Origin: a virus
Lineage: Duplodnaviria > Heunggongvirae > Uroviricota > Caudoviricetes
Direction: 5' to 3' (one strand)
Virus record (IMG/VR): IMGVR_UViG_2713896779_000022
Length of the DNA stretch: 35,191 bases
The notes under the pieces were generated by a model. The model saw only the letters and a list, made by a program, of their open reading frames with translations, had not been told where the DNA came from and ran no database searches. The position numbers and the translations under genes were made by a program. Positions 24,766 through 31,131 of this stretch are shown piece after piece. Position 1 is the stretch's first letter. Every line of letters begins with the position of its first letter.

Positions 24766-25077
24766 TTATTCAGGAAATAACGCCCGGATATTTCCGGCCA
24801 TCTGACTGGTTATCTGTGCGGTTGATACTGGCTGTGATGCGGGGCGTTCTGTCCTGGTTTGTGTCAGGGATAACGCTTCATCGTCAGCCCATGCAGCCAG
24901 TCGGTAAGCCTCTGCCGGATTAATTTTCATAAGTGCCAGTCCGGCCAGAAAAGCCACGCGTTGACCACTTTTGCGGGCTTCTGGTGTAAGGCTGTCCAGC
25001 CAGGCGCATGCTTCGCCTTCGTTCTTGACGGCGGCGGGCTTCAGATAGAAACTTATCCGTCTGGTTGGTGTCGTCAT
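24766..25077 (-). CDS. parR: ParR/StbB-like centromere-binding adaptor
   Basis: Start at MTTPTRRISFYLKP with RBS AAGGAG 7 nt upstream, 4 nt after parM stop; resembles R1 ParR N-terminus (RRTIAFKL...LTAGLALY vs RRISFYL...FLAGLALM). Confidence 0.7.
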   Translation of the reverse strand: MTTPTRRISFYLKPAAVKNEGEACAWLDSLTPEARKSGQRVAFLAGLALMKINPAEAYRLAAWADDEALSLTQTRTERPASQPVSTAQITSQMAGNIRALFPE

Positions 25078-25081
25078 TGGT

Positions 25082-26041
25082 TTACTCCTTGTCCATTGCG
25101 TACAGCCCATTAACCAGAGCAAACTGTGGCACCCCGTCCGCGATGAAAGTCGCATTAACTCCGCAGGCTTCGCGGATAGCGGGTGCCACAATCTCCGCCC
25201 CGCCACCGACAACCATCACCCGCCCGTAACCCGAAAAGCCCGCCAGCGCGCGGATCACGCGTTGTTTCAGTGTTTCTTCCTTTTCACGAATAACCGCCAT
25301 CAGGCTGGCGTAATGCGCGTCATTGTGGATGTGCTGGCGCAACCAGGCTTCATCATGGCGATGTTCGATAATGGTATTGGCGATGTGGTGACTGGTACGC
25401 ATACCGTTAGTGGCCATCACCGACAGTACGGCATCGGCCATCAGGGAAACGCCTACGTGTGGATCGCAAAACACCTGGCTGATACCTGCCAGTTGCCCCT
25501 GAACCTTTGCCACATCCAGTGTGGTTCCGCCTAAATCCACAATCAGCAGGGATTCAAACGGACTCATGTCAGCCAGTGCTTTAAAGCCAGCCGGAATGGA
25601 TTCAGGCATAACCCGTACGTTACGGATAGTGAATGCTTCGCCGTTCTGGTACTCCACCGGGCGCATAACGTTCGATTTTTTGCGGCTGATGTTGGCCATA
25701 TCCGGCTGTGCGTTTGTGTCGAAATACTCGCTCAGTGGCAGGGTGACAACCACATCCACCTCCTGTGGCGTGATGCCTGATTTGACCAGTGCGTGATGAA
25801 TGGCAATGACATTCACATCGCTGTACTGGTATTGCGTGTCGGTCGTCTGGACAAAGCGATCGCTGACCGGATCAAAACCATAGCGCACGCCATCAAGCAT
25901 GTAGTTCGCGGGCTGCGTGCCACCGAACGGCGCAGACCATTCCGACTTGAAGCTGTTCGGGCTGATGGCGTTGCGGCGTTCGCCGTTCTCAGCCCATGCC
26001 AGCTTGATGTTGGTGGAGCCGTCGTCGATACAAATTTTCAT
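25082..26041 (-). CDS. parM: ParM/StbA actin-like plasmid segregation ATPase
   Basis: 319 aa; collinear resemblance to R1 ParM along the whole length (IDDGSTNIKL.W, ISPNSFK.EW, YSDVNV.A.HHAL, IRNV.VMPESIPAG, DLGGTTLD, GGGAE, LVNG.Y). Confidence 0.9.
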   Translation of the reverse strand: MKICIDDGSTNIKLAWAENGERRNAISPNSFKSEWSAPFGGTQPANYMLDGVRYGFDPVSDRFVQTTDTQYQYSDVNVIAIHHALVKSGITPQEVDVVVTLPLSEYFDTNAQPDMANISRKKSNVMRPVEYQNGEAFTIRNVRVMPESIPAGFKALADMSPFESLLIVDLGGTTLDVAKVQGQLAGISQVFCDPHVGVSLMADAVLSVMATNGMRTSHHIANTIIEHRHDEAWLRQHIHNDAHYASLMAVIREKEETLKQRVIRALAGFSGYGRVMVVGGGAEIVAPAIREACGVNATFIADGVPQFALVNGLYAMDKE

Positions 26042-26072: not shown

Positions 26073-26181
26073 TTTACAGGATTTTTAAATCCCGCTTTTG
26101 CCTGTTTTGTGCGCGCCTCATATATCGCGGCACGTTTTTTGCTCATTTACGGGATTTGTGAATCCCGTTTCTGTCTGTTTT
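26073..26181. repeat. parC-like centromere/operator: two ~36-bp direct repeats each with a GGATTT(n2-4)AAATCC palindrome, flanking the parM promoter
   Basis: TTTACAGGATTTTTAAATCCCGCTTTTGCCTGTTTT (26073-26108) and TTTACGGGATTTGTGAATCCCGTTTCTGTCTGTTTT (26146-26181); the second copy overlaps the last 12 codons of gene A. Confidence 0.6.
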
Positions 26182-28959
26182 TTTGTTTCCACTGGTCAGG
26201 CTACCCCGCAGCAGGTCTGCTTTGCGGTGGGCGCGTTCAGTGGTTTCACTGATTCTCTGTGCGTGCTCTGCGTCACGGATGGCGCGCAGCATGTCAGAAA
26301 GCACGGTAACGGGGGTGGGCATGGTGTTCTGGTCCTGCTGAAGTGTGGATACCAGACGTGCGGCGGCTTCGGGGTCTGATGCCCCCAGCTGTTCCAGATA
26401 GCTGGCGACCGGGTTATGGCGGATCTCCGTGCTGCTTACGCCGTGATTACGGCTCAGGCGCTGCCAGAGCTGCGTGATTTGGCTGTCCGGGCGGGTATCC
26501 GGTTTGCGTACAATTTCAAATCCCTGCGGTGCAATGATGCTGCCGTCAACGTACAGGCTGCCGCCCCGTAACAGGTGCTGCATCTGCTGTTCACCAATAT
26601 GCAGGCCGAGAGATTCAGCAGACTCCCGCCATTCTTTAGCGAGTAACTCGTGGTTATCAGGCAAAGGCTGTGGCTGTTTGCGGCTCTGTGTCCAGTTCTG
26701 CATTTCATCGCTGCTGTTTTTTGCCTGTTTGTCACGAAGCGAACGCATCAGCGCCCGGCGTTCGTGCCGTTTCAGTGAATGCATCCATTCGTTCACTTCA
26801 ACGCCGTCAGGAAGCTGCGGCCACGGTGCTGGCCGTTCTTCCGGCTGTTCTGTCCCGTTGTTGTCCGTTTCCTGTACACGGGGACAGTTATTGCCACGAG
26901 TCCAAGGGGCGGCAGGGCCGCCCTGAAGGTCAAAACCATTTTCGTGGGCGTTGTCTTCCGGTTCTGGTTTACGTCTTACCAGCTTCCAGTTATCCGGATG
27001 CGTGCACACACGGGAGGATTCCCCGATGAGTGGTGACCAGATCCCGTAAATCTGTACGCTCTGTTCGCCGTAATCGTTCAGCTCATCTGCGAGGTCGTAG
27101 GCGGTGCGAATCAGGTAGTCCTTGCGTGGAACAAGCACGCCACCCTGTTTTTCAATGTAGGTGGCAAAACACCCGGCATCGGCGGCAGCGAGTACCGCAT
27201 CCATTGCATCATCTTTCAGCCGTTGCGGGCCTTCCGGATTGCGTGCCATCTGGCTGGCAAGGCGGCGCAGTTCACGCCACACCTGACGGGAGGGGATGCC
27301 AAAGAACTGGAACTGACGGACCCGGTGAAGGCGCGCCCAGCCGATGGCGCGCTCCACGCTCTCGGCCATTGATTTACCTGTTTCGTGGTCAACGCGTGGC
27401 TTGCCCGTTTTCGGGTCGATGCCATCCACGGCGCGGCTGTCCAGGTTCTTTCCGATGTAGGTGGCGATGTAGCTGGTTGGCGTGCCTTTTGAGCCGTCGA
27501 CGTACTCCGCCTTAAAACGCGGAGTTATGTCATTGCCCTGCTCGTGGCGGTCTTCCTGAATGGCAATATCGCAGACGTGGGACACGATGGTTACAATCTC
27601 GTCAGGATGAGCAAAAACCATCATGTGCCAGTGCACCGTGCCGTCATGATGAGGCTCCACCGTGCGGATGCCATACCAGCGCAGGCCGTCGCGGTTCAGT
27701 TTTTTGCGGACCGCCGCAAAAAACGTGTTAACCAGGTAATCGCTGGAGTCGTGCATAGTGGCCCCGTTCCATTTGGGATTCGGATGACCGTTCTCCGTTG
27801 TTGCGTGGTATTTTGACGGGCAGGTGACAGTCAGAAACACCGCTCTGTCGCCACGGGCTTCGGCCAGAAGTTCCAGCCCCTTCATGGTGGCCATCATTTC
27901 TGCCTTACGGTGAACCGGGTTACTTACTCCCGCGTAATACACTGTCTCGAGATCAATCGTGAACCCGTCTTCATTTTCCAGCATGAAACTTTTCAGGAAA
28001 TCGCGTGTTTTCTCGCGCTGTGCGCGAAACTCGCTTAACGCGTCCTGGCTCAGATAGGGTGATGTTTTTCTGGAAACCAGACAGGCGGCGCGGAGTTGTT
28101 CTTCTCTCCACTCGCAACGTAACAGCCACAGTTTGCGTTTCCACCATTCCGCACAGGTCAGGCGAAGGATTGCGCCCGGCAGCAGCTCCGTGTCCGGTTC
28201 GTTCCTCCGGTCTTTGTCTGTTGTCAGTGCGTCATAATGTGGAGGCATGGCGTGCAGGTGTAACGCCATGCGGGCCAGCATCTGATACGCCTTCAGCGTT
28301 ACATCCATGGTCAGTTCGCCATCAGTCGCGCCAAAGCCATCGCAGAGTTTTTCGAAGGTGCTGCTGAACATCGCCGCCGTCATGGTGGCCAGCGTCTGTA
28401 TCTGGTGTTTGTTGAGCTGCGGCAGGTAAAGCAAATCGTCCAGGCGTTCGCGTCCGGCAAGGGAGCGATAACCCGGTGTCAGCCAGCGGTGATCGGTGCG
28501 GTCCAGACGTTCGAATATTTTGCGCAGGGTTCCGCGCGCGTAGCGTTCAGCCTGCCAGCTCTTTTTGCCTTTCTGGCGATCGGCTTCCTGTTTTTTGCGC
28601 AGGAAAGAGAGGTGGCGGCTCAGAGGTTCACGCAGATAAACGGGAAGCACCTTCAGTGTGGCAAAAGCACGGGCCACCGGGTCTTGTTCTGTTGCCTGAC
28701 GCTTGCTGATGATGCTTTGTGCCAGCTTTTCACGCTGTCCGGCTTCCTCAAGGGATGCCATGAGTTTTTTACCCACGGTGGATTGTGCGAAAAAGGCTTC
28801 CTCCTTCGCTTCCTGTTCTTCCAGAGCCTTTTTGTCTGCCTCAAGGTAGTAACGGATGGCGCGTTGCAGGTCGGTTTCAGTTTCCTGCCTGTGCTCCGTA
28901 AATCTGGCCGGATCAATGGCTGGCCGTGGTTCATTCCAGCTCCATGCAAACTCATTCAT
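26143..28959 (-). CDS. A: replication initiation protein A (rolling-circle endonuclease)
   Basis: Start at MNEFAWSW (ATGA overlap with upstream ORF); contains HUH-type motif TVHWHMMVF and catalytic Tyr pair in YIATYIGK; ~938 aa, longer than P2 gpA. Confidence 0.9.
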   Translation of the reverse strand: MNEFAWSWNEPRPAIDPARFTEHRQETETDLQRAIRYYLEADKKALEEQEAKEEAFFAQSTVGKKLMASLEEAGQREKLAQSIISKRQATEQDPVARAFATLKVLPVYLREPLSRHLSFLRKKQEADRQKGKKSWQAERYARGTLRKIFERLDRTDHRWLTPGYRSLAGRERLDDLLYLPQLNKHQIQTLATMTAAMFSSTFEKLCDGFGATDGELTMDVTLKAYQMLARMALHLHAMPPHYDALTTDKDRRNEPDTELLPGAILRLTCAEWWKRKLWLLRCEWREEQLRAACLVSRKTSPYLSQDALSEFRAQREKTRDFLKSFMLENEDGFTIDLETVYYAGVSNPVHRKAEMMATMKGLELLAEARGDRAVFLTVTCPSKYHATTENGHPNPKWNGATMHDSSDYLVNTFFAAVRKKLNRDGLRWYGIRTVEPHHDGTVHWHMMVFAHPDEIVTIVSHVCDIAIQEDRHEQGNDITPRFKAEYVDGSKGTPTSYIATYIGKNLDSRAVDGIDPKTGKPRVDHETGKSMAESVERAIGWARLHRVRQFQFFGIPSRQVWRELRRLASQMARNPEGPQRLKDDAMDAVLAAADAGCFATYIEKQGGVLVPRKDYLIRTAYDLADELNDYGEQSVQIYGIWSPLIGESSRVCTHPDNWKLVRRKPEPEDNAHENGFDLQGGPAAPWTRGNNCPRVQETDNNGTEQPEERPAPWPQLPDGVEVNEWMHSLKRHERRALMRSLRDKQAKNSSDEMQNWTQSRKQPQPLPDNHELLAKEWRESAESLGLHIGEQQMQHLLRGGSLYVDGSIIAPQGFEIVRKPDTRPDSQITQLWQRLSRNHGVSSTEIRHNPVASYLEQLGASDPEAAARLVSTLQQDQNTMPTPVTVLSDMLRAIRDAEHAQRISETTERAHRKADLLRGSLTSGNKKTDRNGIHKSRK

Positions 28960-29345
28960 GGCTGGTATCCCGTCACGCGCTGCCACTCCTGCGAGAAGAG
29001 GGCAGAAAGGCGGTTAAATTCAGCGGTGTATTCACTCAGCGAGGCACACCCGCCAGCAGTGCGATGCGCCAGCATTGCCGCAAATACGGAGGCCGGGGAG
29101 TCGTAATACGCCAGCAGTGATTCTCCGTGTGGTGTCAGGCAGTGCAACGCCAGCCCGTGTGGTGTGAAGTCCACGCGGTAGCAGTCGTCTACTGTGAAAT
29201 AAAGGGTGTCTGCATTCTCCGGTTTTGTGGTGCGTGCTCTGTTGTCACGACCACGGATGTAGAGATCAAATAATCCCTGAAGAACGGGAGCCAGACGGGT
29301 GTCCTGTGTGCGCACCCATCTTGTGAAGTCATGAGCGTCAATCAT
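28956..29345 (-). CDS. hypothetical early protein, translationally coupled to A
   Basis: 129-aa ORF whose stop overlaps the A start (ATGA). Confidence 0.6.
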   Translation of the reverse strand: MIDAHDFTRWVRTQDTRLAPVLQGLFDLYIRGRDNRARTTKPENADTLYFTVDDCYRVDFTPHGLALHCLTPHGESLLAYYDSPASVFAAMLAHRTAGGCASLSEYTAEFNRLSALFSQEWQRVTGYQP

Positions 29346-29417
29346 GCTGCAATTCTCTTTACTACAGATGTGCGAAGGCCTCCCGCCGCAAGGTGCAGGA
29401 AAGGCCCGGAACAGGAA

Positions 29418-29648
29418 TTAATGGAGTTTGTTTTGCTGCTGGAAGAGTTGTTGCAGCTCGCGCAGATCATCCGCCAGATAGCTGAAAACAGAGGCGGAAT
29501 AGATGTTCGATAGCGCGTGGCTGCGCTCATGCAGCATATTGATGTGCATGATTTGCGCGACGCGTGATGCGCGGAAAAGTCTACGGTTGATTTCAGTCTG
29601 GATGTGACGACGCGCAGCGTATGCGCGCTGTTGTTTGCGGTTTGCCAT
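29418..29648 (-). CDS. hypothetical small basic protein
   Basis: 76-aa ORF with RBS AAAGAGG 8 nt upstream of the ATG. Confidence 0.5.
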   Translation of the reverse strand: MANRKQQRAYAARRHIQTEINRRLFRASRVAQIMHINMLHERSHALSNIYSASVFSYLADDLRELQQLFQQQNKLH

Positions 29649-29823
29649 GGTGTGGCCTCTTTGCTCGGTGATAGAAATAGCTCACCATCCAGAGTTGAGA
29701 ATCTCGGGGTGGCGAGACGTACAGGGTTCTCAACACCGGAGAGCAAAGAATCCGGCCCGACCGAAGTCGGCCCCGTACGCCCCGCCATAATTCTGACGCG
29801 AAAAAGACGTGGCAATACAGTAC

Positions 29824-29848
29824 GCACAAAAAAACCGCTGGCGCGGTT
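29824..29848 (-). terminator. candidate intrinsic terminator inside the early region
   Basis: Minus strand: stem AACCGC / GCGGTT with 4-nt loop followed by TTTTTTT (plus-strand A-run 29828-29834). Confidence 0.4.
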
Positions 29849-29920
29849 ATGCGCTTTGCTCTGTATCGGGTTGAGAATCCCGGCACCCGTTTTATGAGGT
29901 GCAGCGGAAATGTAACCTGA

Positions 29921-29949
29921 CCGATTGCGGCATGGCAAGCGGTTTTTTT
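29921..29949 (+). terminator. candidate intrinsic terminator on the plus strand (antisense to the early operon)
   Basis: CCGATTGC-ggcatg-GCAAGCGG (one mismatch) followed by TTTTTTT at 29943-29949; no plus-strand protein gene ends here. Confidence 0.45.
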
Positions 29950-29970
29950 GTGTGTGCATGTTCTGGTTTC

Positions 29971-30756: not shown

Positions 30757-31131
30757 CTATGCGTTAAATACGGCACGTTGCGCGTCATCAATGAATACAG
30801 CTTGAGATCGTTCTATCAGGCGGAGATTTGTCAGAAGCTCTGACTCTTTTGTGTGGTAAGGCGTTATCAGGTATTTGCCGTGCAGTTCGGCAATAATGGT
30901 GTATTGCGTCATTATTGCCGAACCAAGAATGTAAATGCGGCGTCCAATGCTGGACGGATTCATGGCTGCAACTGTTGACTGTGTTTTAAGAGTGTCGATT
31001 TCTTTGCTCTGTTCCTCAATAATTTTGGCTGCTTCAGAGGTGGCTATTGCGATGGTCAGTGCGTAAAGCGCTGCCATATGTTGATTATCTTTCTGGGCTG
31101 CCCTGGACAGCTTGTCTTGCTCTGCTGACAC
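30757..31131 (-). CDS. hypothetical early protein
   Basis: 124-aa ORF; start uncertain (internal Met at MAALYALT; an alternative short frame with RBS GGAGAT begins at ~31178). Confidence 0.5.
   Translation of the reverse strand: MSAEQDKLSRAAQKDNQHMAALYALTIAIATSEAAKIIEEQSKEIDTLKTQSTVAAMNPSSIGRRIYILGSAIMTQYTIIAELHGKYLITPYHTKESELLTNLRLIERSQAVFIDDAQRAVFNA

Follow-up and report, generated by a model that had tools for sequence, protein, structure and literature searches.

An isrK-C4 RNA cassette ahead of an epsilon-like gene in the early operon of a P88-like Escherichia coli prophage, and its probable role in RNA-based immunity

What is the function of a gap that carries no credible protein gene and yet lies inside an otherwise tightly packed phage operon? 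This question is raised by positions 29649-29970 of the window analysed here, by which we mean the whole stretch of viral DNA of 35,191 nucleotides to which all coordinates refer unless another genome or locus is named. A sequence-only reading of the window had described the gap as a structured, non-coding island within a minus-strand operon, and had proposed a small antisense or regulatory RNA, a regulated terminator upstream of the replication genes, or an iteron-like site. The gene layout of the window bears out the packed minus-strand operon. When the 601 bases around the gap were used as a query, many complete E. coli chromosomes, O121 and O157:H7 among them, proved to have 100% identical copies, 1,153 of the 5,426 complete E. 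coli genomes contained 80% or more of the query, and the records of P88-type phages (genus Xuanwuvirus, in the P2-like family Peduoviridae) showed about 90% identity to it. The window carries a P88-like, P2-family E. coli prophage, and the gap lies inside its early operon. In an annotated identical copy (L001), the gene order is integrase, HTH repressor and then the divergent early operon. The last genes of this operon encode, in order, a MarR-like protein and a 99-aa protein and, beyond the gap, proteins of 76 and 129 aa, the gpA replication endonuclease, ParM and a partition protein; the window counterparts of these early-operon genes are all on the minus strand.

The whole window was scanned against Rfam at curated thresholds, a check which the sequence-only reading had suggested. 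Besides an IS3-family pseudoknot at 19-135, exactly two hits were obtained, C4 and isrK, which stand in tandem on the operon strand inside the gap and are both full-length and above threshold. The two RNAs, together with the terminator of the leader, are located as follows.

29705..29792, minus strand: C4/CI-type antisense RNA of 88 nt, in which a long outer stem surrounds the b' hairpin and a UUCG hairpin (29770-29757) (Rfam RF01695)
29828..29902, minus strand: leader RNA of 75 nt from the isrK family, homologous to the P4 seqA leader; two hairpins at the 5' end, then an intrinsic terminator (Rfam RF01394)
29826..29848, minus strand: intrinsic terminator of the leader, with stem AACCGC/GCGGTT, loop GCCA and U7 (terminator scan; the same element is the 3' hairpin of the isrK model)

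The C4 match scored 78.5 bits in comparison to a gathering threshold of 45, covering model positions 1-87 of 87 with an E value of 6e-14 over the whole window, and the isrK match (29902-29828, minus strand) scored 62.8 bits in comparison to 50, covering model positions 1-77 of 77. A match to c4-a1b1 overlapping the leader was below threshold (15.9 bits in comparison to 46.7) and fits the same reading; the CRISPR-DR33 (21.7 bits in comparison to 39) and Hrs13 (15.7 in comparison to 52) matches were also sub-threshold and were dismissed as chance. With the P4 genome as positive control, the same models recovered C4 with 74.9 bits at 8507-8420 of that genome, which is the CI RNA inside the obsolete 'cI' ORF, and isrK with 60.8 bits at 8692-8615, which is the PLE leader. 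The same pair was present in all 16 other loci that were fetched, which comprise P88-like prophages, Stx, Rac-like and other lambdoid prophages in which it stands upstream of Rha-type anti-repressors, and one plasmid. By Rfam criteria the cassette therefore belongs to the known C4/CI and isrK/seqA families, and is as such ordinary, widespread and already known. As for the pseudoknot, this is an ALIL element (RF01497, 121.5 bits, plus strand), recorded together with an ORF at 61-951 (plus strand), and represents the programmed-frameshift signal of an IS3-family transposase; its position at the left edge of the window indicates that an insertion sequence abuts or interrupts the prophage end.

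Folding and a covariance check across relatives, which had been suggested as well, gave the family-consensus fold, with compensatory changes both in the stems and in the a/b pairs considered below. The minimum-free-energy fold of C4 (-47.6 kcal/mol, z -4.9) is the Rfam consensus, and is predicted to consist of a 17-bp closing stem and two hairpins, the UUCG hairpin and one with a 12-nt loop, together with a single-stranded junction of 8 nt. The CGAA-loop hairpin of the sequence-only reading is real, at 29757-29770, and on the minus strand it is the UUCG tetraloop hairpin inside C4. The leader, which is separated from C4 by a spacer of 35 nt, also folds better than expected (z -3.1), and its hairpin 1 has compensatory changes in 5 of 6 pairs. 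For the stems of C4 and leader hairpin 1 taken together, 99.8% of cells were paired and 18 of the 37 pairs carried double-sided, compensatory changes. The minus-strand terminator, which had likewise been noticed earlier, was found independently by the terminator scan, as a stem at 29848-29833 followed by a U-run, and by the isrK model.

The gap had further been credited with two repeated motifs, and most of the features listed in that reading are indeed present, although their positions had been off by 1 to 7 nt. The motif GTTGAGAATC(T/C)CGG occurs on the plus strand at 29694-29707 and 29870-29883, with an inverted copy, GTTGAGAACC, at 29725-29734. The 10-mer GTTGAGAAYC has 3 copies in the 35-kb window, all inside the gap, in comparison to 0.08 expected, and at least 3 copies were seen in 0 of 100 shuffles. 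For the second motif, the core CTTTGCTC recurs, at 29659-29666, at 29854-29861 and inverted at 29741-29748, but the full 10-mer CTCTTTGCTC is single, at 29657; together with an additional unrelated copy of the core at 31002, there are 4 copies in comparison to 1.25 expected, which is less exceptional than GTTGAGAAYC. The repeated motifs are the recognition elements (a and b) of the C4 antisense system, with one set in the leader, one in C4 and one downstream of C4.

29870..29877, minus strand: a1 target UUCUCAAC, loop and 3' arm of leader hairpin 2 (perfect complement of a')
29854..29862, minus strand: b1 target AGAGCAAAG, between hairpin 2 and the terminator (9 of 9 positions complementary to b')
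29740..29748, minus strand: b' recognition loop CUUUGCUCU, C4 nt 45-53, within the second inner hairpin, in its 12-nt loop (pairs with b1 and b2)
29727..29734, minus strand: a' recognition segment GUUGAGAA, at C4 nt 59-66 within the single-stranded junction (pairs with a1 and a2)
29694..29701, minus strand: a2 target UUCUCAAC, directly 3' of C4 (complementary to a')
29656..29666, minus strand: b2 target GAGCAAAGAG at 29666-29657, overlapping the Shine-Dalgarno sequence AAGAGG at 29661-29656, with the ATG at 29648 (pairing with b')

The duplexes are short (8 nt for a, 9 to 10 nt for b), and their complementarity is kept across relatives. In the alignment of 17 loci, the a1-a' pairs were 99% paired, with 5 of 6 changed on both sides, and the b1-b' pairs were 98.7% paired, with 8 of 9 changed on both sides, which makes 98.8% paired and 13 of 15 compensatory for the two segments together. 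As controls, none of 500 shuffles came close to these values, and registers slid by 1 to 3 columns were at most 49% paired. On the downstream side, a' and a2 form 8 of 8 pairs, and b' and b2 form 10 contiguous pairs, one of them G-U, over the Shine-Dalgarno AAGAGG. The b2 segment overlaps this Shine-Dalgarno 7 nt upstream of the ATG of the 76-aa gene, and in the relatives it always ends 9 to 12 nt before the ATG. When the full read-through RNA is folded, b' is predicted to pair with b2, which sequesters the ribosome-binding site, and a' with a2, both in cis.

To extend the comparison, a pattern scan of viral contigs gave about 120 further loci, and 86 distinct modules were assembled from E. 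coli genomes, phages and viral contigs. The results showed that the 7-nt core of a' is a perfect complement of both a1 and a2 in 86 of 86 modules. The 9-nt core of b' has no mismatch to b2 in 61 modules, one in 19 and two in 6 (at most one in 80 of the 86), and no mismatch to b1 in 46, one in 24 and two or three in 16. These modules comprise 12 a-types, 29 b-types and 38 combinations, and close relatives may share one segment type and differ in the other, as do L004, L011 and L013, which have the same b and different a. Judged from the sequences, this pattern is expected of segments that determine which RNAs interact, as known from P1/P7 heteroimmunity, and is unlike that of protein-binding repeats.

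The same data bear on the earlier proposal that the repeats are iteron-like, or operator, DNA sites for a replication or regulatory protein. Two motifs, each present three times within 230 bp and adjoining a replication gene, would suit such sites; however, the copy in the middle belongs to a structured RNA gene and is inverted in every case, and other tandem direct repeats were not seen. Same-orientation repeats conserved among relatives that share an initiator would be expected at an iteron or origin, whereas the repeats here vary freely among relatives with near-identical gpA, always as complementary sets. The three copies change jointly, keeping RNA complementarity including G-U pairs over the 12 a-types and 29 b-types, which is unlike sites for a conserved protein. 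As the repeats co-vary as complementary RNA pairs, DNA sites of this kind were rejected, and we give them almost no credence.

Upstream of the leader, the promoter scan and the positional conservation of the hexamers located the following element.

29909..29950, minus strand: predicted leader promoter, equivalent to the P4 PLE and Gifsy-1 isrK promoters (promoter scan; positional conservation of hexamers)
Parts of the leader promoter, minus strand: A-tract 29949-29943; -35 TTGCCA 29938-29933; -10 TACATT 29914-29909; predicted start about 29902

The -10 of this sigma-70-like promoter ends 7 nt before leader model position 1 (29902), and the -35 and -10 hexamers stand in constant register to this position in every relative group, while the spacer between them, and hence the hairpin discussed next, varies. 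The promoter overlaps a plus-strand hairpin and T7 run which the sequence-only reading had taken as a convergent, plus-strand terminator, and which could accordingly mark the end of a plus-strand small RNA or antisense transcript at 29920-29949. The pattern is present (hairpin 29920-29943, T7 29943-29949), as a 9-bp stem with one mismatch followed by T7, and the Hrs13 match, far below its gathering threshold, might be counted in favour of a small RNA. Terminator function did not hold up, however: the hairpin fold (-11.7 kcal/mol, z -0.28) is no better than that of shuffles, 69 of 200 of which were equally good, and the stem is not kept in relatives. In the epsilon-linked group, 23 distinct upstream variants were compared; the A-tract, CCGCTTGCC (-35) and GGTTACATT (-10) stand out as conserved blocks, whereas the spacer with the 3' arm of the hairpin is unrelated sequence in several variants, where the A/T-run drops to 5. 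In addition, most close relatives have CAATCAGT in place of the window's CAATCGGT, which brings an extra mismatch into the stem, and the lambdoid copies have different -35 and -10 hexamers that are equally placed. The promoter scan showed no plus-strand promoter-like site in 29649-29920, and the window layout agrees with the earlier remark that there is no plus-strand gene for the hairpin to terminate. A stable, conserved GC-rich hairpin with a U-run and a transcript to end, as is expected of a plus-strand intrinsic terminator, was thus not found here. Since the stem is replaced while the -35 and -10 stay fixed, the feature is better read as the leader promoter and not as a terminator, and a plus-strand RNA ending there is highly improbable.

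Another promoter-like site, TTGCCA-N17-AATTAT at 29787-29815 (minus strand), lies in the spacer before C4, with its -10 overlapping C4 nt 1-6, and is partly conserved in P88-like relatives. This candidate was rejected: a start from it would truncate the closing stem of C4, its -35 is lost in some relatives, and chance alone would give 2.2 sites of this kind in the stretch that was scanned, so that it is probably a chance occurrence. With the leader promoter and both RNAs on the minus strand, the earlier suggestion of a small antisense or regulatory RNA was right in kind and wrong in its strand logic, as all functional RNAs are on the minus (operon) strand; the 'antisense' RNA would act in trans or in cis on complementary sites of its own transcript, without an opposite-strand origin. 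The suggestion of a regulated terminator upstream of the replication genes was also right in kind, as the locus corresponds to a control point of regulated termination and translation before the replication gene.

The genes that follow the gap on the same strand are given below.

29418..29648, minus strand: first regulated gene, whose 76-aa product is homologous to P4 epsilon, the anti-repressor for derepression of the helper (Pfam; pairwise alignment)
26143..29345, minus strand: distal genes of this transcription unit, namely a 129-aa ORF at 28956-29345 and gpA at 26143-28986 (gene order; gpA by PF05840)

The 76-aa protein matched Pfam PF25738 'Derepression' with 31.5 bits in comparison to a cutoff of 27, and was 33% identical to P4 epsilon over 51 aa with a pairwise E value of 4e-9; its RefSeq name is 'derepression protein'. 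An epsilon gene thus follows directly on the cassette, as is expected of a P4-type cassette. The gpA replication endonuclease matched PF05840 Phage_GPA with an E value of 1.4e-127. In this 947-aa protein, the Phage_GPA domain covers residues 194-518 only, and the approximately 430 C-terminal residues have no Pfam match. The genes after gpA (25082-26041 and 24766-25212, both minus strand) correspond, by synteny with L001, to a ParM-type segregation ATPase and a plasmid partition/stability protein, which are unusual cargo for an integrated P2-like phage and hint at a plasmid-like maintenance option. For the small proteins, an NCBIfam search gave no matches, and a PHROGs search gave families of unknown function only. 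The markers of a P4-like satellite (alpha primase, sid, delta, psu) do not describe the surroundings, which are those of a Peduoviridae phage with gpA and structural genes, and this means that a homologous cassette resides in a different kind of element and that the element is no P4-like satellite.

The gap was described earlier as lacking a credible ORF, and this holds even though a 205-aa minus-strand ORF at 29342-29959 spans it. In RefSeq, the gap is either left empty or overlaid with an 'ash family protein' pseudogene, and it could be argued that an Ash family protein is encoded there: the 205-aa ORF has a weak match to PF10554 (19.3 bits in comparison to a cutoff of 26), and 'ash family protein' features lie over the homologous region in other genomes. 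Against this, the ORF crosses the intrinsic terminator and shares part of its length, in a different frame, with the epsilon-like gene; indels of 1, 2 and 11 nt among relatives, in the leader, the spacer and the ribosome-binding region, leave no frame intact; and the substitutions are compensatory at the RNA level. PF10554 'Phage_ASH' also matches the obsolete P4 cI ORF (59.7 bits), which lies over the CI RNA, as well as the RefSeq 'ash family' pseudogenes over isrK and C4. With the frame-shifting indels and the mapping of PF10554 onto the P4 CI RNA, a coding Ash ORF was rejected, and we consider it barely conceivable. PF10554 regions were noted at 29342-29959 (minus strand) of the window, 8168-8584 of L003, 1501-1770 of L004 and 1452-1886 of L017. 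It seems that PF10554 is the non-coding isrK-C4 region captured as a protein profile, the true P4 epsilon being covered by PF25738. A survey of P4-like satellites took PF10554 as its 'epsilon' marker (PMC8628076); as PF10554 matches isrK-C4, this marker detects the RNA locus and not epsilon itself. In lambdoid prophages, the RefSeq coding sequences for 'Rha family phage regulatory protein' begin upstream of isrK and C4 and cross both (L008 1452-2300; L009 1339-2304), with isrK at 1503-1579 and C4 at 1604-1691 in L008. The real Rha start is probably the ATG 9 to 12 nt after b2, and the annotated N-termini are probably over-extended.

In P1/P7 and P4, the small RNA is excised from a precursor by RNase P, is stable and represses in trans, and in P4 a leader element is needed for establishing immunity. 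We regard it as very likely that the gap is an RNA-based (secondary) immunity cassette, homologous to P4 PLE-seqA-cI-seqC-epsilon, P1/P7 c4 (immI) and Gifsy-1 isrK/STnc1160. In the proposed mechanism, the sigma-70 promoter (-35 at 29938, -10 at 29914) would initiate a minus-strand RNA at about 29902, and most transcripts would end at the intrinsic terminator (29848-29826), giving the 75-nt leader which carries a1 and b1. The 88-nt C4 would be carried by read-through transcripts and by transcripts from the upstream early promoter; as C4 lies downstream of the intrinsic terminator, its supply would depend on read-through. By analogy with P1 and P4, C4 would then be excised as a stable small RNA, with RNase P acting at its 5' end. 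Its exposed segments, b' in the hairpin loop and a' in the junction, would pair with the downstream b2 and a2, and the b'-b2 duplex would cover the Shine-Dalgarno of the epsilon-like gene and block its translation; the untranslated nascent RNA could then be subject to Rho-dependent termination, again as in P1 and P4. The epsilon-like gene, orf129 and gpA would be off while C4 is abundant, with polarity presumed for the distal genes. Processing, the involvement of Rho and the shutdown are all modelled on P1/P7, P4, N15 and Gifsy-1. Since gpA is needed for lytic replication, some bypass of the silencing must exist.

The role of a1 and b1 is the least certain step of this mechanism, and the sign of their effect is drawn from analogy. 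They may bind the same C4 segments either to aid termination, as in P4, or to titrate C4, in which case the leader would be an activator, as in Gifsy-1. It is possible, if rather unlikely, that positive control of the Gifsy-1 type dominates, in which the long transcript would silence itself in cis and the short leader would serve as a trans-acting anti-antisense RNA; its a1 and b1 would bind the C4 segment, free the ribosome-binding site and turn on the epsilon-like anti-repressor, favouring induction over immunity. Such control was shown experimentally for the same architecture in Gifsy-1 (PMC4825925), the predicted full-length fold with its cis pairing would suit it, and a1 and b1 are as conserved and covarying as a2 and b2. 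On the other side, the homologous small RNA is an immunity factor in P4 and P1/P7. Immunity and activation are mutually compatible as models, and the sequence alone does not favour either.

The known systems differ in how closely they resemble the cassette. In PMC3632133, IsrK and C4 are described as structural homologues of P4 seqA and CI RNA, forming an 'IsrK-C4 immunity system'. In comparison to P4, the cassette has the same order on one strand, with a promoter, a terminated leader carrying an upstream target, a structured small RNA, a downstream target over the ribosome-binding site and an epsilon-family gene, both P4 RNAs match the same Rfam models and the downstream protein is an epsilon homologue. 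The differences are that the host here is a complete P2-like phage with gpA, tail and head genes, while P4 is a satellite; that the leader-to-C4 spacer is 35 nt in comparison to 107 nt in P4; that epsilon follows directly after b2, while a kil/eta reading frame comes first in P4; and that the a and b sequences are unlike those of P4. Comparison of the window's 88-aa MarR-like protein with P4 ORF88/Vis, and of orf129 with P4 orf151, showed no similarity, so that nothing outside the cassette and epsilon is P4-like.

For P1/P7 immI, the common features are a processed antisense RNA of about 77 to 88 nt derived from the transcript of its own target, with a'/b', upstream a1/b1 and downstream a2/b2, the position of b2 at the ribosome-binding site and an anti-repressor target (icd-ant); P1/P7 c4 is the founding member of Rfam RF01695. 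Two sources describe c4 RNA as blocking ant translation at the ribosome-binding site (PMC12197685, PMC8546580), and the first attributes the heteroimmunity of P1 and P7 to variation in the a/b sequences (PMC12197685). P1 differs, going by its known features, in being a plasmid prophage with a C1 repressor, and in that icd and ant1/2 are unrelated to the epsilon-like gene. Gifsy-1 isrK-orf45(STnc1160)-anrP of Salmonella has a leader of the same Rfam family, a rho-independent terminator, read-through into a C4-like segment, a downstream anti-repressor and pairing between leader and downstream segment that governs translation. In that locus the anti-repressor is controlled through RNA pairing and STnc1160 is processed from a read-through transcript; the homologous leader acts positively, and constitutively expressed STnc1160 did not act as a simple repressor (PMC4825925). 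Gifsy-1 differs in being a lambdoid prophage, in having an anti-repressor of Rha/AnrP type reached via a coupled small ORF, and in that the leader effect shown is activation.

The copies in lambdoid, Stx and Rac-like E. coli prophages, upstream of Rha-family anti-repressors, show both Rfam hits and follow the same a/b logic, and differ from the window in a 24-nt spacer, stronger promoters (TTGATT/TACACT and similar) and another regulated gene. In Rac/Qin-like prophages, a DicF sRNA gene lies about 230 nt upstream of isrK-C4, and ryfA is nearby in the plasmid copy (L008 1226-1276; L017 1217-1268; L018 813-1109), which indicates that several phage sRNA genes cluster in one region. In the literature searched, no description of the cassette in P88-like phages was found; an annotation based on Rfam would nevertheless pick it up, and the system itself is well characterised. 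What is new is modest, namely that the context is P2-like, that an epsilon homologue is the gene under control, and how diverse the a/b types are, and the finding opens no new question. Its main consequence is a correction of annotation, as the gap in this prophage, and in more than 1,100 complete E. coli genomes with most of the 601-bp query, would be annotated as a functional RNA immunity cassette in place of empty space, an 'ash family' pseudogene or, in other copies, the N-terminus of a Rha protein. As the probable control point of an anti-repressor-like gene and a replication nuclease, the cassette bears on the quiescence and induction of P2-family prophages in pathogenic E. coli (O121, O157, O104).

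The same a/b types recur in P2-like phages, lambdoid prophages, a plasmid and P4-type satellites. A more speculative reading, which we hold to be improbable, is that the a/b segments are a modular, fast-diversifying 'barcode', through which C4 and the leaders could act across elements in one cell. If so, silencing could run in either direction between a P88-like helper and a satellite or competing prophage that shares its type, and the epsilon homologue could derepress rival P2-like prophages, so that the cassette would serve in conflicts between helper and satellite or between phages, and not in self-immunity alone; a recent common origin of the P4 immunity-plus-epsilon module and the P2-family module would then also be suggested. 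Finally, one viral contig (L060) has two C4-pattern matches, at 7061-7109 and 7930-7978 (plus strand), about 870 nt apart, which may be tandem immunity cassettes.
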